DNA from: a virus
Taxonomy: Duplodnaviria; Caudoviricetes
Length of the DNA: 26,922 nucleotides
IMG/VR virus record: IMGVR_UViG_3300037313_001071
Span: 1 to 26,922 of that record
Strand: one strand, 5' to 3'
The notes under the pieces: generated by a model
Told to the model about the DNA's origin: nothing
Database searches by the model: none
The model's input: only the letters and a program-made list of their open reading frames with translations
In this document: in pieces, positions 2,987-26,180 of the stretch
Layout of the letters: every line of letters starts with the position of its first letter
Position numbering within the stretch: position 1 is the stretch's first letter
Translations under genes and position numbers: made by a program

Positions 2987-4524
2987 GTTCCCTTCGTCGT
3001 TCCGCTCTTCGCACCGCCCGCATCCAGCACGCGGTAGCGAAATTCGTCGCCAATGTGGTCTTCACTATCTGTATCCACGTCTTCCGGGTCTTTCTCGTCG
3101 CGTGGCAATATCGGGACGAGTTCAACAAAGTGTTCGCAGTATTCTCCAAATACAAACAAGCCAGGCTTTTCCCGCGGCTGCCCGGGACCTGGAGGCTGTG
3201 CATGCTGGATATACGTTCTGCAACGCTCCCACCCGTTCCTTCTGGAACCAGGACTCTTATCAGCACGCGTCCACATAACACCCGGATACATCTTGCCGTC
3301 ATCCAGACGCTGTGGTTTAGACATATCGGCAGCAATACTTCCGCCGTTCTCGACGTCAAATATGCTACCGTCAGCAGGTCCAGGTACCACGCGCCCATGG
3401 ATGCCCCATGCGAGTTCGCGCTCGATTATACCTTTTGCGACATCGGATGCGAGCATCTGGAGGCCTTGGTTGGCCTTACCCGTGGTGCCGTACCATTCGC
3501 GGATCCGGAACAAGTCTCCCTTCACCGTGCTCCTATACCGCCCGTCCGGCAGCAGCACATCACTCCCGTCGCTCTCGGCCCACCAGCCCACGCTAAACGG
3601 TTTGGTGCTGCCCCAGTCAAAGCTGCGGTTGATTTTCCAGGTGTGGGGAATCTTAAAGGCGCCAACCAAGTTATGGTCTGCTGACCACACATCGTCAAAC
3701 ATACCTCCGCTCACAATGTCCCAGCTCCCCTCCAGCCAAGCCTTCTTCTTATTAATGTCCGTCATGCTCACAAGCTCTGCCACGTACTTCGGGTCCAGAT
3801 ACTTGTTCTCTTTGTACGTACCAAACAGATGCGTCTGCGTCGTTACAAAGTCTTCTTCCTTGCGCGTCTGTGGGTTAAACACCCGCACAGTCTTCCGCAC
3901 AATCTGTCCAGGGCGCCCAGCCTTAATAAACTTCTTTTTCACCCAATTGTGCCCAGGTCCAAATGGGTTTGTTGTTGCCACCACCTCCAGCGGCATCTTG
4001 GGTGGGTACCCAATAACACGCCCAGCGCGGTCATAAATCGGGTAATCCTCAGGTCTAAATGAACTGCGGTTGCAGCTCATCATCATTTCAAACAACTCAT
4101 CGGTCGGGTACTTCGTTAGCTCGTTCCAGCCAATGAAGGGAAATTCTTGCCCGTGGTAGTTCCAGTAATCCTGGGGGCGCTCGATGGTCCGGAACAACAG
4201 TTCTTCACCTGTTTTCCACACCCACCTGTAGTCGCTTTTGCTGCTAAGGAAGCGGCACCCGTCCTTGAACTCTGGAAACCACCTCAAGCTCTTGCTCACC
4301 AAGTCGTCCAGGTTCTTGTACTCGCGGTCAAATATGACGCCGCGCCAGTGCCGCCCAAACCCCTGCCCCACCCATTGGCGGAAGCGCATGAGCTGCCCAT
4401 CTGTCTTCCCTGGACCCCGTGTGCCGTGCACGAGTAAGACGTGCGCAGGGCACGTCATCATGAGAGTCTGGGACCCGGGCAGGGGTTCCCAGACTACTTT
4501 GACGCCGTCAACTAATCTTGCCAT
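2983..4524 (-). CDS. terL: Terminase large subunit
   Basis: Walker A GTRGPGKT, Walker B FIGWNELT, coupling motif ATTNP, nuclease SFDWG and C-terminal EDHIGDEFRY. Confidence 0.95.
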   Translation of the reverse strand: MARLVDGVKVVWEPLPGSQTLMMTCPAHVLLVHGTRGPGKTDGQLMRFRQWVGQGFGRHWRGVIFDREYKNLDDLVSKSLRWFPEFKDGCRFLSSKSDYRWVWKTGEELLFRTIERPQDYWNYHGQEFPFIGWNELTKYPTDELFEMMMSCNRSSFRPEDYPIYDRAGRVIGYPPKMPLEVVATTNPFGPGHNWVKKKFIKAGRPGQIVRKTVRVFNPQTRKEEDFVTTQTHLFGTYKENKYLDPKYVAELVSMTDINKKKAWLEGSWDIVSGGMFDDVWSADHNLVGAFKIPHTWKINRSFDWGSTKPFSVGWWAESDGSDVLLPDGRYRSTVKGDLFRIREWYGTTGKANQGLQMLASDVAKGIIERELAWGIHGRVVPGPADGSIFDVENGGSIAADMSKPQRLDDGKMYPGVMWTRADKSPGSRRNGWERCRTYIQHAQPPGPGQPREKPGLFVFGEYCEHFVELVPILPRDEKDPEDVDTDSEDHIGDEFRYRVLDAGGAKSGTTKGT

Positions 4525-10200: not shown

Positions 10201-10368
10201 TCAGAGATTTAGAAGTCGGATGACAGCAGCAACCCAAGCACCGCCAAAGAACATAGAGGCGCAGATGGTCAGCTCCGTGGCACCGGCCGAGACTTTATTG
10301 TGGGTGACCACACTGTAAGCGAACAGGGTGATGCTGAGGACGAAGCAGATGAAGATGAGGTAGAACAT
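10201..10368 (-). CDS. Small two-TM membrane protein (55 aa)
   Basis: Hand-read: MFYLIFICFVLSITLFAYSVVTHNKVSAGATELTICASMFFGGAWVAAVIRLLNL. TATACT lies 10 nt upstream (near-leaderless). Confidence 0.5.
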   Translation of the reverse strand: MFYLIFICFVLSITLFAYSVVTHNKVSAGATELTICASMFFGGAWVAAVIRLLNL

Positions 10369-10769
10369 AGTGGTGGGCAGTATAAGTGCTGGAAGGCTCT
10401 GATGTGGATCCTGCCCTTACGCGTGCGTGCGTTATGCGTACAGGCGTGTTATGGGCAGAAAAGGCTATTACGAAGAAATAAAGGGTGTGCATTCCATAAC
10501 GAATATCGATTTAAATTGAGAATCATGTGTTGATGGTACCTCCGCCCGGTCAGCCCAGCAGTAAAGATGGTAGCCGGTGAGGTAACAGATTACATGCTCT
10601 GCAGTTCCAGCTGGGCAGTAGACAGCACAGCAATAGGGTAGCTGTGCAGTAGCAGCTGGACTGTATGGAATGGACGTGCTAGCAGCAACAGCGGGGTAGT
10701 GCTAGCGCAGCAGGAAGTACGGATGTGCTGTACGGTACAGCGTGTGTCTAATTGGAACTTAGACTACTG

Positions 10770-11130
10770 CGTGTTAATGGTAATTGCGTTATGGGTTATG
10801 CAATGGGAATTAAGCGATTTATTAAGCGCTGTGCGTTATGGGGTAATTAAACAAAGCCCCAAAGTTCCGTTTAGAACAGATTTGCTGGGGGTTTTACTAT
10901 AGTGCTTTTACTGTTATGTTATATATATATTATTTTTACCTTATACCATTGGTAATGGGGTGTACATTAAGCGAGGCGCGTTTCTTTTATTTATTAATGT
11001 ATTTAATACCATTACCATTGGTGTTTACACACATATGGCATACCGTATAACGCATAGCGCACTACCATTACTAATACCCCATTACCAATACCCCATTAGT
11101 AATCGTATTTGCATCCAGCATAACGCGTTA
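10770..11130. repeat. AT-rich region with mirrored short repeats (candidate origin/terminus)
   Basis: GCGTTATG and TAATGG motifs on the left, ATAACGC and CCATTA motifs on the right, around a TA run at about 10920; lies at the transcription divergence point. Confidence 0.45.
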
Positions 11131-11187
11131 AACTACACAATTACGCACACTACCCCTTCCCTTAAATCCTCTTTACGTCTTTACGCA

Positions 11188-11730
11188 ATGGCACGCATTA
11201 ACCACTTTGTGCACCCTACGTGGAGTGTTACGGAATGTATAGCCCATGCGGAACAGCATGCGCAACTGTTTAGCAAACCCATTGCACAGCAGCAAGCTGA
11301 GCAGGCGGAATGGGAGCGGAAGCGCGCGGCTGTGCTAGCGGGTAAAGCGGTACCCAAAGCTAAAGCTGAGCTACCAGTGGCACAGCAGCAGGGCGTACAG
11401 CCCAACAACTACGGATATACGCCTTTGCTGTGCACGGTTACTACGGTTGAGCTAAACCGTGCTGGTGTGGTTAAGCTAGAGCTAAAGGCTAAGCTGGACC
11501 GCATGTACGCAACCATAGGTGGCACAGCAGAGGGTAAGCCAATAGATGAGTTGCGGTGCGCGTATAACCCTGCGTGTGACATGGTTACTAACCACACCGC
11601 TGCTTTCAAGCTCATGGTACAGCAGCACCCCCAGCTCAACGGTAAAATGTTTATTGCTGTGCCATGGTCAAAAAAGGTTACGCAGTTTGCCGAAGTGCAC
11701 ACACCCGCTGTGCTAATAGCTGGTCAGTAA
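11188..11730 (+). CDS. Hypothetical protein (180 aa), first gene of the right arm
   Basis: Long ORF; ATG 11188 chosen because the upstream part is low-complexity repeat sequence. Weak RBS. Confidence 0.55.
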   Translation: MARINHFVHPTWSVTECIAHAEQHAQLFSKPIAQQQAEQAEWERKRAAVLAGKAVPKAKAELPVAQQQGVQPNNYGYTPLLCTVTTVELNRAGVVKLELKAKLDRMYATIGGTAEGKPIDELRCAYNPACDMVTNHTAAFKLMVQQHPQLNGKMFIAVPWSKKVTQFAEVHTPAVLIAGQ

Positions 11731-11793
11731 TATTCATGAGTTGCTTGCGCACCACGTAGCAAGCACCGTACCAATCACCTCAAAGTAGTACGC

Positions 11794-11831
11794 ACACCCT
11801 GCAACAGCGCACACCGCTTGCAGGGTGTTTT
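11794..11831 (+). terminator. Probable terminator hairpin
   Basis: ACACCCTGCAA...TTGCAGGGTGT followed by TTT. Confidence 0.5.
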
Positions 11832-12368
11832 AGTATTATGACGCAATTTGCGTACCAGCTAACTTAGTGCTTCGGTTTGCAGCGTGCTATGGTTTTTGCG
11901 TAACCAGTCGTACAAACGCGTTTTAAGCGCTTTTTTAAGGGTACCCGCTACCCTAGTACCAACCCTCAAAAGTTTTTTGCTGTTGCGCTGACGTTTTGCG
12001 CACTTGGGTATTACTTGCACTATGCTTTGCATAGCACATTTGCAAACGAGGGTACTACAAACACTGCTGAGCTTACTACAGCGTGGGTGCTACTGCTGCG
12101 CTTGGTGCTTATGCATGAGCTTAAAACGCAGCACGACAGTAGCTACTGCTGTGTTTAACGCGTGTTAACGCCACCCGTTACCATGTTAACTACCACGTAG
12201 CCCACAACCGGCGTAGCAAGCGCACAATGTAGTCATGGGTGGTTATTGCACCACCCCACCTGAAGCGAGGGGTACCCACCCCGCGCACACAGGGTAGCTC
12301 AACGGTGTGGTGCTGGTGCTGTACAGCACCCGTGCGGTGCTCAACCGCTTACCACATCAAAGCGCTAG

Positions 12369-12384
12369 CGCTACTTTAACAATT
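12369..12384 (+). promoter_or_regulatory. boxA-like antitermination site
   Basis: CGCTACTTTAACAATT versus rrn boxA TGCTCTTTAACA (one extra base); upstream of the early operon. Confidence 0.4.
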
Positions 12385-12543
12385 CACACACTAGGTTAGC
12401 TCTACTATATTTTGGGTAACTCAACCTTTGCGCTTGCTGTGTAAGCACCGCGCATCGCAGCTCAACCTTACAGCACATCAGCTACGCGCTGGTGTGCTGT
12501 GCGGTGCAAGTTGCACCAGTAGTAACCCAACCGGAGTAACACC

Positions 12544-12813
12544 ATGTTTGTAGTCTCTAGCAATGGTACTGACCAGCTTCAACCCATCCGGGCAGTTGGC
12601 AGCACACCAGCTAACGCGTGCATCGTTTACGTTACGTTGCTCAACGCACAGCTCATTGCAAAGGTGCAGAAGGGTACGTACACAAACGCAGTAAACGGTG
12701 TTGTGTACGAAAGTGTTATTAGCTTTGACCAGCTAACAGCATTTGAAGAGCTTGCGCCATTTGTTTACGAGATGTTTGATGGGCAAGTAAAACTTACACT
12801 CAAAAAGGTCTAA
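12544..12813 (+). CDS. Early hypothetical protein (89 aa)
   Basis: GGAG-7nt-ATG after a hairpin module. Confidence 0.75.
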   Translation: MFVVSSNGTDQLQPIRAVGSTPANACIVYVTLLNAQLIAKVQKGTYTNAVNGVVYESVISFDQLTAFEELAPFVYEMFDGQVKLTLKKV

Positions 12814-12905
12814 ACCTCAAGCGCTACCGCGTATGTAGCGCACAGCTCAACCGTTCTGGTAGCTGTGCGGTGCATATGCACCTCAACCATACTAGGAGCT
12901 CAACC

Positions 12906-13169
12906 ATGTCAAACAACCTCACCCGTACCTACACTGTGCAACTGTTTATGCAGTTTGTGTTTAACGGTACTGATGAGAAGCAAGCGGAACAGCAGCTTGA
13001 TGAGCTTAAGCTGGTGCTTAAGCTGTTGCATAAGGTCGACCCAACAGAAGTTGAGTACGAGCTTGCAGACGCTGGTACCGATGAGCTGCATTACCGCATG
13101 TGGGTGTGGTGTACATACAACACAGCACCCGCTGTGCTTCAAACCATCAGCACCACCTACAAAGCGTAA
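12906..13169 (+). CDS. Early hypothetical protein (87 aa)
   Basis: GGAG-7nt-ATG; flanked by near-identical repeats. Confidence 0.75.
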   Translation: MSNNLTRTYTVQLFMQFVFNGTDEKQAEQQLDELKLVLKLLHKVDPTEVEYELADAGTDELHYRMWVWCTYNTAPAVLQTISTTYKA

Positions 13170-13255
13170 ACCTCAAGCGCTACAGTGCGTAGCGCACAGC
13201 TCAACTTCAACGTTAGCTGTGCAGTACGCACCAAACGTACTAAACCGGAGGTATT

Positions 13256-13378
13256 ATGTCACACTTTTACCACATACACCTTAAGTGTGTCCAACTGCTG
13301 TGGAAGATGTTGCAAGAGGCGCATGTAACGCATGCACCGTATTGCTGGGTCGAAAACCACGCAGAAGCACAACCGTAA
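13256..13378 (+). CDS. Early small protein (40 aa)
   Basis: Hand-read MSHFYHIHLKCVQLLWKMLQE...; GGAGG RBS after a hairpin module. Confidence 0.55.
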   Translation: MSHFYHIHLKCVQLLWKMLQEAHVTHAPYCWVENHAEAQP

Positions 13379-13402
13379 CCAACCACCAACCGGAGCCCAA
13401 CC

Positions 13403-13564
13403 ATGCACGCTACCTCAACCGCATTCGTCAACGGTCCAGTCAAGGTCCGCCAGCTCATGCGTAAAGCCACCCGCCAGCCCAGCTGGAAGGTGGCACAGCG
13501 GGCACCCAGCCCATGTGTGGTTATCAAACCACAACAGCAGCAACAACCAGAATCCCGAAGCTGA
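13403..13564 (+). CDS. Early small basic protein (53 aa)
   Basis: Hand-read MHATSTAFVNGPVKVRQLMRK...; CAACCGGAGCCCAACCATG leader. Confidence 0.6.
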   Translation: MHATSTAFVNGPVKVRQLMRKATRQPSWKVAQRAPSPCVVIKPQQQQQPESRS

Positions 13565-13650
13565 ATTTCGAATTCACCGCATTGCACATCCGTAGGGTGT
13601 GCTCTGCAGTGCATTTGCACTACCACGCAACCCAACCGGAGTAATACACC

Positions 13651-13845
13651 ATGAAAGTCGCTGCAATCGAAATCCGTTGCGAGCATGCGGAAGCTGTTAC
13701 GGATTTTATGCAAGAGCTTGAAAACCAGTGCATACAAACGCTGGAGTTCGGGCAGCTGGACAGCAACCCGCTAGTTGTGCGCATTGCGCCACACTTTGGG
13801 GACCACCTGGACCCCGAGTTGCTTGTCACGCTTAACCTCGACTAG
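13651..13845 (+). CDS. Early hypothetical protein (64 aa)
   Basis: GGAG RBS after a hairpin module. Confidence 0.7.
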   Translation: MKVAAIEIRCEHAEAVTDFMQELENQCIQTLEFGQLDSNPLVVRIAPHFGDHLDPELLVTLNLD

Positions 13846-13925
13846 CAAACACCACCTAGCACATCCATACGTGTGCTAGCTAGTGTTTACTAACACTGCC
13901 CAACCCAACCGAAGGAGAACCTACC

Positions 13926-14348
13926 ATGTCCGACAAATTTGTTGCAACCGTTAAGGGTCTGGAACAACTGGAAAACGGCGATTACACCGATAAAATGGTG
14001 CAAATTGCAACCCAGGAATTCGAAACGCTTACGGAAGCTTGCAATTATTGCGAAATGGAAGCGCACGGCATTAAGGGCGCGGACTGGACCGTAGCGGCAA
14101 AGCTCAGCTTCAAAAAAGCCTGCTCAACCGTTGCTGCCAGCCGTAACCGCAAGCTGTTCCTTTACATGCAACTGGACGCGCTTAATGCGGGCGGGGACCA
14201 CCTGCCTCTGCAGTCCAGCGTGGAACTAAAAGCGCCGCAAATTTGCAAAGTGTTGCATGAAATGGAAAAGCGGGTGCACCCGGAATACGAGCCGGAAAAG
14301 TGCACCGTGCGTCTGCTTGTAACCAAAGACCACATGATTGCTGGTTAA
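13926..14348 (+). CDS. Early hypothetical protein (140 aa)
   Basis: AAGGAG RBS after a hairpin module. Confidence 0.78.
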   Translation: MSDKFVATVKGLEQLENGDYTDKMVQIATQEFETLTEACNYCEMEAHGIKGADWTVAAKLSFKKACSTVAASRNRKLFLYMQLDALNAGGDHLPLQSSVELKAPQICKVLHEMEKRVHPEYEPEKCTVRLLVTKDHMIAG

Positions 14349-14446
14349 CCACACAGCTCAGCCAGCCGCTAGCACATCCACCGGGTGTGCATGCGGGTGA
14401 CAGTTGCGAGTCACTAACATCCACAGCCCAACCAAGGAGTAACACC

Positions 14447-14698
14447 ATGCAAGTTCACGTCATTGCGCTCGACGTTGCGTACACAGGCAATATGCAACAG
14501 TTTGCAGGTGCAACGGAAGCCGCTGTTGTGGAGAAGGTAAAGGCGTACCTTGACGGTACACCTTTAACGGACCACGAAACGCAGCCGCCCAAGTGCCTGT
14601 ATGACCTGGGCAACGCGACCACGTTTAAGGAGCTGGAGAATTGGTTTGCCACATGGCTGGACCAGTACCAGCTTGCCTATAACGAATTGGAAGTCTGA
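14447..14698 (+). CDS. Early hypothetical protein (83 aa)
   Basis: AAGGAG-7nt-ATG (MQVHVIALDV...). Confidence 0.75.
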   Translation: MQVHVIALDVAYTGNMQQFAGATEAAVVEKVKAYLDGTPLTDHETQPPKCLYDLGNATTFKELENWFATWLDQYQLAYNELEV

Positions 14699-14780
14699 GT
14701 AACTAACTGCATGCCCATCTATAAAGTGGGCATGAGGGTAGCGACTCGTTACCATCCACCTCAACCCTAGGAGCCCAACC

Positions 14781-14984
14781 ATGTTCACCTGTAACTTCGA
14801 CAACAAAGTGTTGAATATCCGGCTCATTGCTGCCAAGCAAAAGGCTCAGCAACGCAGCCGAGAGCGCCGCTGCACCGTATTTGTCAACTTCAGCGTAATA
14901 GCTGGCACGTTTTACGCAACTGATTGGTATGACGGCGACTCAACCGTTGCTAGATTCCATGACGGCAAAGAAACTGAGTTTTAA
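14781..14984 (+). CDS. Early hypothetical protein (67 aa)
   Basis: AGGAG-7nt-ATG. Confidence 0.72.
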   Translation: MFTCNFDNKVLNIRLIAAKQKAQQRSRERRCTVFVNFSVIAGTFYATDWYDGDSTVARFHDGKETEF

Positions 14985-15056
14985 GTCCTGTCAGCCGCTA
15001 GCCCGTTCTGCGGGTTAGCTGGTGGCGACTTGCTACCATCCATTAGGAGCCCAACC

Positions 15057-15350
15057 ATGAACCTCTACATTAAGGTGCCTGGTACCAACCTTCCAGCGCA
15101 CAGCGCGGACATTGCCGAAATGCTGTTCGGCAACCGCAAGGCGAAGTTGCCGGTCAGCGGTCTGCTCACGCAAAAGCTTCAGGGTATCAAAATCTGGGCT
15201 ATGCCCTTACAAGCTACCCGCAACACGCGCCCAAACCAGCGCTTCCACCTACGCCTTATGGCGCAATGCCCCGTGTGCGGCAAAGTGACGGCAGCGGGTA
15301 GGCTCGCGCAACATTCCAAGGTCCACGCAGCGCCCAACTTTTGGGGTTGA
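15057..15350 (+). CDS. Early protein with C-terminal C2H2 zinc-finger-like motif
   Basis: CPVCGKVTAAGRLAQHSKVH; AGGAG-7nt-ATG. Confidence 0.75.
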   Translation: MNLYIKVPGTNLPAHSADIAEMLFGNRKAKLPVSGLLTQKLQGIKIWAMPLQATRNTRPNQRFHLRLMAQCPVCGKVTAAGRLAQHSKVHAAPNFWG

Positions 15351-15354
15351 CCAC

Positions 15355-15528
15355 ATGCCGCGACTCAAATACATCCACGCCATGCGCTTGCTGGCGTCTG
15401 AGCCCAAGCTGCGCCGCGACCCGGGCTATAGCCGTTGGAACCGCATTTGTGGCGGAACCGTGCGGTGCCTGCCAGCTGCTGGGCGTTGGGACTTTTACGT
15501 TAACTTGAAGGAGCGTAACCATGGCTAG
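15355..15528 (+). CDS. Small basic hypothetical protein (57 aa)
   Basis: Hand-read MPRLKYIHAMRLL...; fills the gap exactly and overlaps the next start. Confidence 0.5.
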   Translation: MPRLKYIHAMRLLASEPKLRRDPGYSRWNRICGGTVRCLPAAGRWDFYVNLKERNHG

Positions 15529-15793
15529 ATTTATACGTGAGGTTGAACCTCGCGAGTTGACGCAGGGTTTCCTACAGCACAGCCTTGGCACGTCCAGCTT
15601 GGCGTGGAACCAAACAGTCAACCTCATGCATTACGGCGAGGACGGCCCAGGCTATGAAATCGGCGTCACCCGTTGCATGTTTATTGAAGAGGAAATTGAT
15701 ATGCACTCAGTTTCCGAGTTCCAGGAATGGGCGTTTGTGGAGCGTGCGGACCAATGGTACGCAAGCGCCGAGCTGAACTACGGCGACTCGTGA
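15521..15793 (+). CDS. Acidic hypothetical protein (90 aa)
   Basis: AAGGAG RBS. Confidence 0.72.
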   Translation: MARFIREVEPRELTQGFLQHSLGTSSLAWNQTVNLMHYGEDGPGYEIGVTRCMFIEEEIDMHSVSEFQEWAFVERADQWYASAELNYGDS

Positions 15794-15873
15794 ACTTCCA
15801 TCCTGTTGCAACTAGGCATCCTGGTTGCAATGGAATGGGCGTACAATATGTCCATGTCAACAAGGAGCACGAA

Positions 15874-16152
15874 ATGATTATTTGCACATTGACAGTCATG
15901 CGGGCCGACGTGCATGGCTGTGAAGAGCCAAAGGTGTTTGCGGGCACCAGCATTGCACTGGCGCTGGAGGACTTTAAGGCGGAGTTCGCGAGCCGCTTAC
16001 CCCGCACACAGGGCATTGACCTGGAGGAGCAGGCTGAGCTGCTGCAGGAACTGCGTGCATGCGGCAACTTGCGAGACGCCCAGGTGTGGTTAACGAAGGT
16101 GTACGGTTATTACGCCATCCGCTGGGATACCCTTTCCGTGCGAACCGAGTAA
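15874..16152 (+). CDS. Hypothetical protein (92 aa)
   Basis: AAGGAG RBS + ATG 15874. Confidence 0.7.
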   Translation: MIICTLTVMRADVHGCEEPKVFAGTSIALALEDFKAEFASRLPRTQGIDLEEQAELLQELRACGNLRDAQVWLTKVYGYYAIRWDTLSVRTE

Positions 16153-16155
16153 GAG

Positions 16156-16204
16156 AACAGCGACGAGCCTGGAACTTCCACCAGCACAGGCTCGTCAGTG
16201 TTTT
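16156..16204 (+). terminator. Stem-loop (terminator or processing site) closing the first early operon
   Basis: GACGAGCCTG...CAGGCTCGTC followed by AGTGTTTT. Confidence 0.45.
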
Positions 16205-16221
16205 CCCTATCTAAATTTCTG

Positions 16222-16250
16222 TTGCATCGGGTGTCAGCTTCCCCTATAGT
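16222..16250 (+). promoter_or_regulatory. Sigma70-like promoter
   Basis: TTGCAT-17nt-TATAGT. Confidence 0.7.
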
Positions 16251-16323
16251 TAACGCACGTTGCAATAAATAAGCGGACGCTGCTGCCGCGAGTCAGCAGC
16301 TAGACTCAACCGGAGTTTACATC

Positions 16324-17064
16324 ATGACCGACCAAACCGAGGACGATAACGTCCGCAGCTATGCGGAAAAGAGCAAGGCCAAGCGCGGGCTCAAGGTGTT
16401 CACGAAGCTCGAGGGTGCTGCGCTGGACGACGCTGCGCATGCGCTGGTGTACCAGTGTGGCGAGCGGTGGTGCTTTGAGGAGGACCAGGCGCTGAAGTAC
16501 GTGCGTGACCTGGAAGCGGGCGCCGCGAGCCAGGAGGATCCCCAGCCGGGCGAGTGCGACCTGCCCATGGAGGAAACTGTGCAGCAACAAGAAGAAGCGC
16601 CTAGCAACGGCGACCAACCTGTGCCTGGTGCTGGGTTTACGACGAGCGACGATGCACAAGGCCCCCAGGACGCAGACCACATTGCGGGCGCTGGCGTGTT
16701 CGGTGCTATGAACCACACGCTGCAGAACGTTCCGCAGGCGCCCACCGCTTCGGCTCCCCAGCAACGCAACAGTGCGCGGGGCGCGTACAAGATCGAAAAG
16801 AACCGCCCGGAACAAAACGGCATCAAGCGCCCCAGCGTGGGTGGGCTGTGCAGGCAGGTGTGGGACGCGATGGACGCGCTGCGTGAAGCACAAGAGGGTG
16901 TGGTGCCCACCTCACAACAGGCTCGTGCACTTGCTGCAGAACGTGGGTGGAACTTGAACAACGCAATGATCGAGTTCTACCAATGGCGCAAGTACAACGG
17001 TATCACGGGTCGTGCACCCAAGGCCGCGACCCAGCAACAACCACAGCAGGAGCAGCAGGCATGA
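16324..17064 (+). CDS. Phage protein with acidic low-complexity linker and basic helical C-terminal domain (possible DNA binding)
   Basis: 246 aa; C-terminal NGIKRPSVGGLCRQVWD...GWNLNNAMIEFYQWRKYNG; own promoter and GGAG RBS. Confidence 0.8.
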   Translation: MTDQTEDDNVRSYAEKSKAKRGLKVFTKLEGAALDDAAHALVYQCGERWCFEEDQALKYVRDLEAGAASQEDPQPGECDLPMEETVQQQEEAPSNGDQPVPGAGFTTSDDAQGPQDADHIAGAGVFGAMNHTLQNVPQAPTASAPQQRNSARGAYKIEKNRPEQNGIKRPSVGGLCRQVWDAMDALREAQEGVVPTSQQARALAAERGWNLNNAMIEFYQWRKYNGITGRAPKAATQQQPQQEQQA

Positions 17065-17216
17065 AGCGAGGGTGTTGCGGAACGGATGCGCTTAAAGAAC
17101 GCATCCAGACGCTCTATAACTGGCTGCTCGTTCAGCATCCAACGTGGTCGCACCGCAGGGTGCATGACCGCGCTGTTATCGAAGCCTACAAGGGGACTCC
17201 CCTTGGGCTGCTGTAG
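17061..17216 (+). CDS. Small hypothetical protein (51 aa)
   Basis: ATGA overlap; AGGAG RBS. Confidence 0.55.
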   Translation: MKRGCCGTDALKERIQTLYNWLLVQHPTWSHRRVHDRAVIEAYKGTPLGLL

Positions 17217-17330
17217 GACGCGACTCAGTAACATCCACATCCGGTCTCCAGTGGGCAGTGCTTGCATAATGCGAGCACTGTAACAGTGCAGACCTTAACA
17301 ACCAACCCTGCACAGAAGGAGAATGCTATC

Positions 17331-17825
17331 ATGTCTTCTCAACACGTTGTCCACACGACTGCGCAAGCGCAACGAGAGTGGAGCCAGAGCTTGGCGGTGC
17401 TGTACAAGGATGCGCGCTGCCCAATGGAGCTTTACTATCGCTTCGACATCCTGAAGCTGAAAACCCTTATCCAGTTCAGCGACCGCAACGACCGCGCACA
17501 GGCCTTGCATAGGCGCTACCAGGCGCGAAAGGACCTGCATGTGTTGCTGCGCGAATGTGCGCAGGATGGGAAGGTCCTGGTTATCGAATCCGGCATGGAC
17601 TGCGACTGTGTGCAGTACGATGGGCGCCAGCACCTTATCAATGCCACAATCGAGGCGTATGACAAGCTGTACAATGACGTCGCGGAGTGGGCCGATGGTC
17701 CCTTCTCGTTCAGCATTACCAGCCCGAGCGAGGCGCGTTACCACACGTACCGCAGTGTTGACCTTGTTATGGAGGCATACGAAAATGGACACCGCCATTC
17801 CATTCGCCCGCACGCTGTCATCTGA
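17331..17825 (+). CDS. Hypothetical protein (164 aa)
   Basis: AAGGAG RBS after a twin-hairpin module; ESGMDCDC...WADGP motif. Confidence 0.75.
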   Translation: MSSQHVVHTTAQAQREWSQSLAVLYKDARCPMELYYRFDILKLKTLIQFSDRNDRAQALHRRYQARKDLHVLLRECAQDGKVLVIESGMDCDCVQYDGRQHLINATIEAYDKLYNDVAEWADGPFSFSITSPSEARYHTYRSVDLVMEAYENGHRHSIRPHAVI

Positions 17826-25457: not shown

Positions 25458-26180
25458 ATGTCACTTCAATTCACTACGTCTAACCAGCACTCAGACAACC
25501 ACGGCATCAAGGGGCTCGTCTATGGTGAAGCTGGTACGGGCAAGACCACACTTGCCGCCACCGCACCTTCTCCGCTCATCCTCGCCGTGGAGGCTGGTAT
25601 GCTTTCGCTGCGCCGGTCAAACCTGGAGAGGCTTTTTGGAGTCGGTACGCCGGGCATCACCTATGATGTACCAGCAATTATCATCCGCTCCCTGGAAGAC
25701 CTGAACGAGGCCTACACGTTCTGCACCACCAATCCCAGCATGGGTGCAATCCAAACGCTGTACCTGGACAGCTTAACGGAGATTGCAGAAGTGGTGCTGA
25801 ACGCGGCTAAGCGGACGGTGAGGGACCCGCGACAGGCTTACGGGGAACTGATTGAAAAGATGGAAACGCTGATCCGGGCGTTCGTTAACTTGCCCGGGAA
25901 GCATGTGATTATGACCAGCAAAATGGAGCCCATGAAGGATGAGCTCACTGGTGTGGTCAGGTACGGTCCCATGATGCCTGGAGCTAAGCTCAGCGTCAAG
26001 CTGCCGTATATGTACGACGAAGTTTTTAGGCTGGGTGTGAATAAGGATCCGCAGGGTAACACCTTCAGGTTCTTGCAGACGCAGCCTGATATGCAGTTCC
26101 AAGCCAAGGATCGGTCGGGCGCCTTGGCACCTATGGAACCTCCCCACCTCGCCCACATTTTTGCCAAAATAGGAGCCTAA
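25458..26180 (+). CDS. AAA_24 / Sak4-like ATPase
   Basis: LVYGEAGTGKTTLA, LYLDSLTE, DPRQAYG, AKDRSG. Confidence 0.9.
   Translation: MSLQFTTSNQHSDNHGIKGLVYGEAGTGKTTLAATAPSPLILAVEAGMLSLRRSNLERLFGVGTPGITYDVPAIIIRSLEDLNEAYTFCTTNPSMGAIQTLYLDSLTEIAEVVLNAAKRTVRDPRQAYGELIEKMETLIRAFVNLPGKHVIMTSKMEPMKDELTGVVRYGPMMPGAKLSVKLPYMYDEVFRLGVNKDPQGNTFRFLQTQPDMQFQAKDRSGALAPMEPPHLAHIFAKIGA

Follow-up and report, generated by a model that had tools for sequence, protein, structure and literature searches.

The stretch of DNA analysed here (the window; 26,922 nt, positions 1 to 26,922 of IMG/VR record IMGVR_UViG_3300037313_001071, Duplodnaviria; Caudoviricetes) is part of the genome of a Queuovirinae-like siphophage, as was found by comparison of its terminase, its primase and its gene order. 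The terminase shares 65-66% identity with those of iggy, Seurat and HD01 and the primase about 50% with those of NP1-like phages, while the gene order matches that of iggy, in which tiny genes are followed by the genes for primase, MazG and ligase and by a Sak4-like gene (at 25458 in the window). The packaging and lysis genes lie on the opposite strand. At the head of the rightward arm, in the early region, the tiny genes are interspersed with an array of structured modules (Table 1), and a non-coding stretch of about 800 nt upstream of this array folds better than shuffled sequence (z -5.45, 20 shuffles). The sigma70-type promoter-like site just upstream of module 1 is likely the start of the early message, such sites being called by consensus match only, with four found against 4.5 by chance. 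A betaproteobacterial host is suggested by the DUF3567 gene in the window, on what is presumably the range of that family. Near-identical phages are present in DNA runs from soil and rhizosphere (run X1, the possible source, left out), and one IMG/VR contig is a near-identical relative (98.5%); a nucleotide search of positions 11700-16400 against cultured phages gave no match.

The first-pass annotation had described eight intergenic twin-hairpin modules, and all eight were found on the plus strand where it had placed them, with first hairpins at 12470, 12840, 13194, 13584, 13856, 14372, 14710 and 14997. The layout that it had reported, in which the twin hairpin is followed by a C/A-rich tail (5-20 nt), GGAG and ATG, also holds in each of them. 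A detector, which had been tuned on the eight modules themselves, returned 8 modules in 12400-15100 against a mean of 0.01 (maximum 1) in 200 dinucleotide shuffles, and 12 against 1.4 ± 1.2 when its SD condition was removed. The eight modules are a real element. The linker between the two hairpins had been given as 0 to 3 nt; it is actually 0-5 nt between perfect stems and 0 nt after extension of hairpin 1. The sequences do vary from module to module, as had been stated, but they are not free: an A, a C, a GC step and an RGU..ACY motif are fixed in position, and when the modules are aligned where hairpin 2 starts, RGU follows the end of the GC step at a distance of five bases in all eight (GU in module 8). 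Hairpin 2 consists of six pairs, with 48 of 48 cells paired and three columns covarying freely, and one U-G pair recurs at the same position in six of the eight modules. The plus-strand G-T pairs from which a single-stranded structure had been argued are indeed present (12 G-T against 0 A-C among 122 stem positions), but six of the 12 belong to a single column. The reported lack of U-tracts was borne out, 8 terminator-like sites being found in 10300-17500 against 9.2 ± 3.4 by chance.

It had also been claimed that each tiny gene is led by a module, and this is the case for eight of the nine genes from 12544 to 15350, but not for the gene at 13403. The genes between the modules show no mutual similarity (gene 2 being compared in the wrong frame), in agreement with what had been proposed. 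No array gene matched Pfam, PHROG or NCBIfam above the cut-off, and the search for a function returned none for any array protein. A search for proteins resembling that of gene 6 returned no match above the threshold, and Rfam gave no match near the array or in the window. To call these anti-host genes would be to argue by analogy.

Table 1. Features of the module array and its surroundings. C2 is the predicted cut in the 3' strand of the stalk and C1 the second predicted cut, each between the two bases given; scores refer to the junction register described in the text.
Feature	Position	Strand	Stalk	Predicted C1	Predicted C2	Cap hairpin	GGAG	Score	Remarks
Sigma70-type promoter-like site	12383..12411	+							TTCACA-17-TATATT; 10/12 consensus matches
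Module 1	12459..12536	+	12459-12511	12469/12470	12502/12503	12503-12517	12533-12536	-28.0	not its best register
Gene 1	12544..12813	+							89 aa; no function found; missing together with one module in relatives
Module 2	12821..12898	+	12831-12877	12841/12842	12868/12869	12869-12882	12895-12898	-20.4	extra hairpin 12821-12841; top site of the window
Gene 2	12906..13169	+							87 aa; no function found
Module 3	13177..13250	+	13185-13231	13195/13196	13222/13223	13223-13241	13247-13250	-21.5	extra hairpin 13177-13195; second site of the window
Genes 3 and 4	13256..13564	+							40 and 53 aa; short spacer between them, with GGAG and no module
Module 4	13570..13641	+	13570-13616	13580/13581	13607/13608	13608-13621	13638-13641	-24.7	
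Gene 5	13651..13845	+							64 aa; no function found; N-terminal part different in the 98.5% identical relative
Module 5	13845..13917	+	13845-13890	13855/13856	13881/13882	13882-13897	13914-13917	-26.4	second-rank register
Gene 6	13926..14348	+							140 aa; no function found; two relatives, 68% and 61%
Module 6	14358..14439	+	14358-14404	14368/14369	14395/14396	14396-14415	14436-14439	-30.2	weakest
Gene 7	14447..14698	+							83 aa; no function found
Module 7	14699..14773	+	14699-14745	14709/14710	14736/14737	14737-14753	14770-14773	-24.1	
Gene 8	14781..14984	+							67 aa; no function found
Module 8	14987..15049	+	14987-15029	14997/14998	15020/15021	15021-15037	15046-15049	-26.8	
Genes 9-12	15057..16152	+							97, 57, 90 and 92 aa; no function found; genes 10-12 without full module
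Module 9	16153..16205	+		16163/16164	16196/16197			-21.9	same stalk and register
Joint in relatives	13378 to 15045								in shared RBS
Joint in relatives	15867 to 16155								borders of replaced gene
Joint in relatives	14711 to 15685								module arm into gene
Joint in relatives	15030 to 15800								cap loop to intergenic site

The twin hairpin is only one of two possible folds; both can form in all eight modules, and both covary. In the alternative fold, the spacer upstream of hairpin 1 is paired in register with the 5' arm and the loop of hairpin 2, which gives a single stalk of about 20 bp. In its lower stem, 51 of 72 positions are paired, against 28.2 ± 3.9 with shuffled flanks, and the upstream arm matches its own module to the extent that only 11 of 40320 assignments are equally good. 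Modules 2 and 3, which are near-duplicates (81% alike over 63 nt), carry compensating changes exactly in the lower stem. Counted over all 20 pairs of the stalk, 78.8% of 160 cells are paired and 13 of the pairs change on both sides; slid controls gave 19-48% pairing, a comparison which favours the stalk because its structure was derived from the same sequences. The covariation exceeds that of all 500 shuffles, and the stalk has the form of an imperfect hairpin of about two helical turns. In nascent RNA ending before the 3' arm of hairpin 2 the stalk is favoured (P 0.47-0.99). Equilibrium folding of the full-length sequence gives the stalk in modules 1-3 and the twin form in modules 4, 5, 7 and 8 (P 0.82-0.95), with module 6 split, and because of this preference for the twin form the stalk may be short-lived. 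Among the matches listed, the substitutions of relatives inside modules keep both folds, as they fall in a loop (13592) or in mismatches (13604 and 14391) or give a G-U pair (13613).

A ninth stalk (16153-16205) was found out of sample: it came third, after modules 2 and 3, in a scan of the whole window, and a covariance model of the other eight modules identified it in register with 26.8 bits. Module 9 has no cap hairpin (the hairpin 2 of the other modules), no nearby RBS and no gene close behind it, and it closes the array ahead of a promoter-like site at 16222. Neither the long alternative fold nor this ninth site had figured in the first-pass annotation.

One of the two branches of interpretation offered in that annotation was an RNA processing element comparable with the RNase III sites of T7. 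The comparison was supported by a position-specific match both to the rules for RNase III and to five T7 early sites, but the likely substrate is the long stalk and not the twin hairpin. The stalks were scored with pair counts from 85 in vivo RNase III sites of E. coli (PMC6212723, Table S4), in an implementation of our own which differs from the scoring of that paper. The best of 15 registers was the one in which the 3' cut falls at the first base of RGU, at the hairpin junction (sum -202.0, next -222.8). This junction register is the best single register in five of the eight modules and the best of 15 in module 9, and modules 2, 3 and 9 are the top three sites on both strands of the window. 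Its score was reached by none of 150 independent threadings and by 2 of 400 draws from a conservation-preserving null in which the best of seven registers was allowed. The strict threshold given in PMC6212723 is reached by only four of the eight modules and also, among the matches listed, by some 40 places per strand. When T7 was used as a control, the true sites scored -25.0 to -35.7 and the top match lay one base off R1.3. All of these scores are to be read with the shared ancestry of the modules in mind, and with determinant rules that are those of E. coli and may not be those of the phage's host.

In the junction register, D' is A-U in all eight modules and D is A-U or U-A in six and a mismatch in the other two, so that G-C, which at proximal-box position 2 (D, D') blocks binding (PMC1540722), never occurs there. 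The guanine at +3, described as an RNase III determinant in PMC9291653, is found on the 5' strand of all eight and on the 3' strand of six. The recurring U-G pair sits at the distal-box position in the six modules that have it, being missing from the bulged modules 2 and 3; a distal-box U-G is named a stringent requirement in PMC1540722. The mismatches that the modules have at C' and B', G-G and C-A, also occur at these positions in the E. coli table (PMC6212723). C-G pairs are found next to the C2 bond (B') in five of the eight and at B in four, and a C-G next to the scissile bond is an antideterminant that can uncouple binding from cleavage (PMC1540722). The distance between C1 and C2 is 27 nt in five of the nine modules, against 28 nt for the T7-derived model substrate. 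The helix above C1 measures 11 bp in modules 1, 4 and 6 and 9 bp in modules 5, 7 and 8, and is bulged in modules 2 and 3, the minimum being 11 bp. Stacked helices can reportedly be processed by RNase III. The stacked twin hairpins were tried as a substrate and gave a weak fit (p 0.31 for the best register, 0.047 for the fixed one). An alternative register, which would set both fixed G at three bases from the cuts, was discarded since it would bring G-C to an antideterminant position. A loose consensus regular expression was too permissive as a detector, with 392 matches in 1.31 Mb. A contig from an RNA library starts at 14397, one base off a predicted cut; it was set aside, as a second contig spans that site, the runs come from a single study and contigs reveal neither ends nor strand.

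The T7 early RNase III sites were placed at what we take to be their positions. The register of R1.1 was checked against the numbering of PMC1540722. The match of the modules to the five T7 early stalks (R0.3, R0.5, R1, R1.1 and R1.3) peaks in the junction register (35.0, next 21.8). Like the T7 signals, the modules are intergenic stalks between early genes on the coding strand, probably within one polycistronic message, and they share with the T7 stalks A-U at D, G-C at E, C-G at H, A-U at I, U-G at J and a U three bases after the 3' cut; in modules 1, 4, 5, 6 and 7, four to five of seven pairs are identical to those of R1.1. They differ in that C-G replaces G-C at F, that there is no large asymmetric loop at the cut and that they belong to an unrelated phage group which uses the host RNA polymerase. 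A further difference concerns the product. The predicted junction cut would leave the downstream message with a perfect 6-bp hairpin, opened by the post-cut bases RGU at its first base, in all eight modules, whereas only one of the five T7 products (R1.1) folds a similar hairpin, and from base 2. In the region, 53 of 2671 positions are able to open such a hairpin. The downstream product is calculated to close this cap at base 1 with P 0.73-1.00, and the predicted SD accessibility in the cut product is modest (0.22-0.65).

The reading preferred here, to which a probability of roughly two in three is given, is that the modules are T7-type RNase III processing signals with a built-in refolding 5' cap, cleavage being predicted from the sequence. 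One long early transcript would be made from host-type promoters, and the stalk of about 20 bp would form first, as the message is made. Host RNase III would cut the 3' strand of the stalk (C2) at the first base of the fixed RGU, with or without the second cut (C1), and the freed downstream end would refold so that the 6-bp hairpin starts at its very first base. In modules where mismatches or a C-G pair beside the bond block C1, hairpin 1 would stay on the upstream message and protect its 3' end, in the manner of the single cuts of T7; the 3' hairpin left by a single cut is a known stability determinant (PMC3867540). The early transcript would be divided into short messages carrying one to four genes each, with protection at either end and the RBS outside the cap. 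Incidentally, the sequence that neighbouring modules have in common would let them recombine in register occasionally. A comparable product is described for the cspA leader of Staphylococcus aureus (PMC3386247): RNase III cuts within a long hairpin, the resulting message begins with a short hairpin at its 5' end, and the half-life rises from under 2.5 to over 16 min. That element is the 5' leader of one bacterial message and has a helix of 32 bp, whereas the modules form a repeated intergenic array.

An explanation that does without cleavage would make the twin hairpin the working form, shielding the upstream message from 3' exonucleases and separating the RBS from the upstream gene, and RNase III might then bind without cutting. 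The preference for the twin form at equilibrium in four of the eight modules agrees with this, as does the capacity of C-G beside the predicted bonds to uncouple binding from cleavage (PMC1540722). RNA-library contigs also cross modules 1, 3 and 6, although a contig is no single transcript and presence in a library is no proof of transcription. It is nevertheless judged improbable, because it leaves unexplained the covarying lower stem, the fixed A opposite the fixed U, and module 9, where the stalk is present without a second hairpin. Any protein might make use of the fixed GC step and RGU..ACY, and most early proteins of the phage have no assigned function; the modules might then be sites for another nuclease or RNA-binding protein, either phage-coded or acting on RNA polymerase through a put-like antitermination RNA. 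This seems decidedly improbable in view of the coincidence of the fixed positions with RNase III determinants and with the T7 stalks in one register, and there are no terminators between the genes to read through. The put antiterminator of HK022 consists of two stems one base apart just behind the promoter and acts on RNA polymerase, unlike the eight copies between genes seen here.

Integron attC sites are bounded on the top strand by RYYYAAC (5') and a GTTRRRY core (3'). The second branch of the first-pass annotation had likened the modules to such structure-defined sites, at which site-specific recombination would swap gene cassettes, and it is not supported: the modules are most probably not an attC-like recombination site, and the chance left to this reading is very small. 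As in attC, structure is kept while sequence varies, with one element per small gene, and RYYYAAC occurs near five of the nine modules, at differing places. A top-strand GTTRRRY, however, is found in none of the nine, no integrase was seen among 45 ORFs scanned in the window, which holds part of the genome, and the wobbles and determinants fit plus-strand RNA. Breakpoints of gene gain and loss had been expected at the modules, but of five distinct joints given by contigs of relatives (the joint from 15139 to 15291 being excluded from this count) only one runs from module to module, and not at G/TT (a cut between G and TT). This joint, from 12511 to 12877, is found in runs of three studies (X5, X6 and X7) and removes gene 1 and one module exactly in register, and module 2 resembles a hybrid of modules 3 and 1; yet it lies in 6 shared bases beside 13 more, and ordinary annealing explains it, given the Sak4-like gene. 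The remaining four joints fall within a shared RBS, at the borders of genes or out of register (Table 1), and three of them rest on single low-depth RNA-library contigs from one study. Gene 5 and the gene at 11188 were swapped without modules. By their sequence, the joints appear to fit ordinary exchange at short homologies and not a dedicated site. It is tentatively conceivable, although unlikely, that the module is a dual-use cassette border, serving both as an RNA cut-and-refold switch, by which each early gene would obtain a self-capped message irrespective of the genes beside it, and as a preferred in-register DNA exchange point at which ready-to-express genes would come and go.

The PeSL cassettes of T4-type phages each hold a sigma70 promoter and a terminator (PMC2839356). 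Like these, the modules are repeats between ORFans in a plastic region, where a gene can be gained or lost by occasional in-register exchange from copy to copy, but no promoter-like site lies in any module and U-tract terminators are not in excess, which leaves hardly any weight for promoter-terminator cassettes acting at the DNA level. A tRNA-like (RNase P) reading was rejected, CCA being found one base after hairpin 2 in only one of the eight modules.

The fetched regions of six cultured relatives held no comparable array, with 0-1 match each. No array was found in 105 loci anchored on the family of the gene at 16324 (42 matches in 1.13 Mb, never more than 2 within 3 kb), many of which are not early regions or not phage. 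A stalk-plus-cap scan of relatives likewise gave no array, and the same scan missed modules 4 and 6. The covariance-model search of phage loci that had been proposed at the outset also returned no array, but three weak matches in 98 loci (best 17.9 bits); on whole records, single matches were obtained in three of five (E 0.01-0.25). The model matches are isolated, weak stalks of T7-like type, one of them in the cultured coliphage CAjan (NC_028776 52078-52121, minus strand), where it precedes a small gene, and the others in two further loci. A degenerate DNA pattern search returned three loci, two of them unrelated. In the open-access literature, no paper was found that describes RNase III-type sites for this group of phages or a cut-and-cap design in an array. 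The modules are most likely a hitherto undescribed form of the T7-type RNase III signal, with a refolding 5' cap; the class of mechanism itself is familiar.

If the preferred reading of the modules as RNase III signals with a refolding cap is true, they would provide nine single-base predictions and a natural set of substrates for the rules of RNase III, as well as a part of 60-80 nt for decoupling and stabilising genes in synthetic operons. Their design would be compact, the hairpin that protects the 5' end being produced by the cut itself, and the splitting of early messages in the style of T7 would be extended to an unrelated, likely base-modifying lineage of siphophages.

The DNA around the start of the early arm, the rightward arm headed by the array of repeated intergenic stalks (modules 1-9), was found to be poor in certain short motifs. 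Between window positions 10500 and 15500, GA/TC is low, falling to 0.28 of expectation at 11501-12500, and GGC/GCC drops to 7 occurrences against 32 expected; both depletions fade, and about 0.9 of expectation is regained by 17 kb. Of the 20 plus-strand copies of the hexamer CTCAAC, 13 fall within 12298-14944, often in spacers and leaders.

The depleted stretch includes a non-coding leader which folds more stably than shuffled sequence (z -5.45 against 20 shuffles) and carries, in relatives, a compensating double change (G12239T and C12254A); no match to it was found in Rfam. The gene preceding it is replaced by other sequence, up to the stop codon, in the phage record L001 and sequencing run X4 and also in run X2, and the L001 version shares 27% identity with that of the window across 59 amino acids.

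Features in and around the array and in other phages
Feature	Location	Strand	Remarks
180-aa gene preceding leader	window 11188-11730
Non-coding leader, ~730 nt	window 11731-12460		many hairpins
Third hairpin of module 2	window 12821-12841
Third hairpin of module 3	window 13177-13195
Intergenic hairpin	window 15794-15842		13.9 bits, weak (covariance model)
Intergenic hairpin	window 17244-17293		13.3 bits, weak (covariance model)
Single T7-like upper stem	L006 (CAjan) 4079-4122	minus	weak score; flanked by two small genes, ahead of GGAG
Single T7-like upper stem	L055 (IMG/VR Queuovirinae-like contig) 12019-12058		weak score

Within the array, modules 2 and 3 each carry a third hairpin, a fold in competition with the stalk's lower stem. 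The identity shared by these two modules begins at the upstream stop codon, and module 2 resembles a hybrid between modules 3 and 1. The N-terminal half of gene 5 (13676-13770), which lies between modules 4 and 5, diverges strongly (72% protein identity) in a relative 98.5% identical elsewhere. The two weakly scoring intergenic hairpins are possibly degenerate sites.

The depleted motifs coincide with dPreQ0 targets, which are GA and GGC in the cultured phage CAjan and GA alone in iggy. A matching GA/TC hole is present where the early arm of iggy begins (0.29) and in four further records, L090, L091, L092 and L100 (0.11-0.2), GGC being undepleted in these four. The base-modification gene dpdA is absent from the window, which covers part of the genome. 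The motif counts suggest that this phage would have a GA+GGC modification enzyme and that the DNA transcribed first avoids modification sites.
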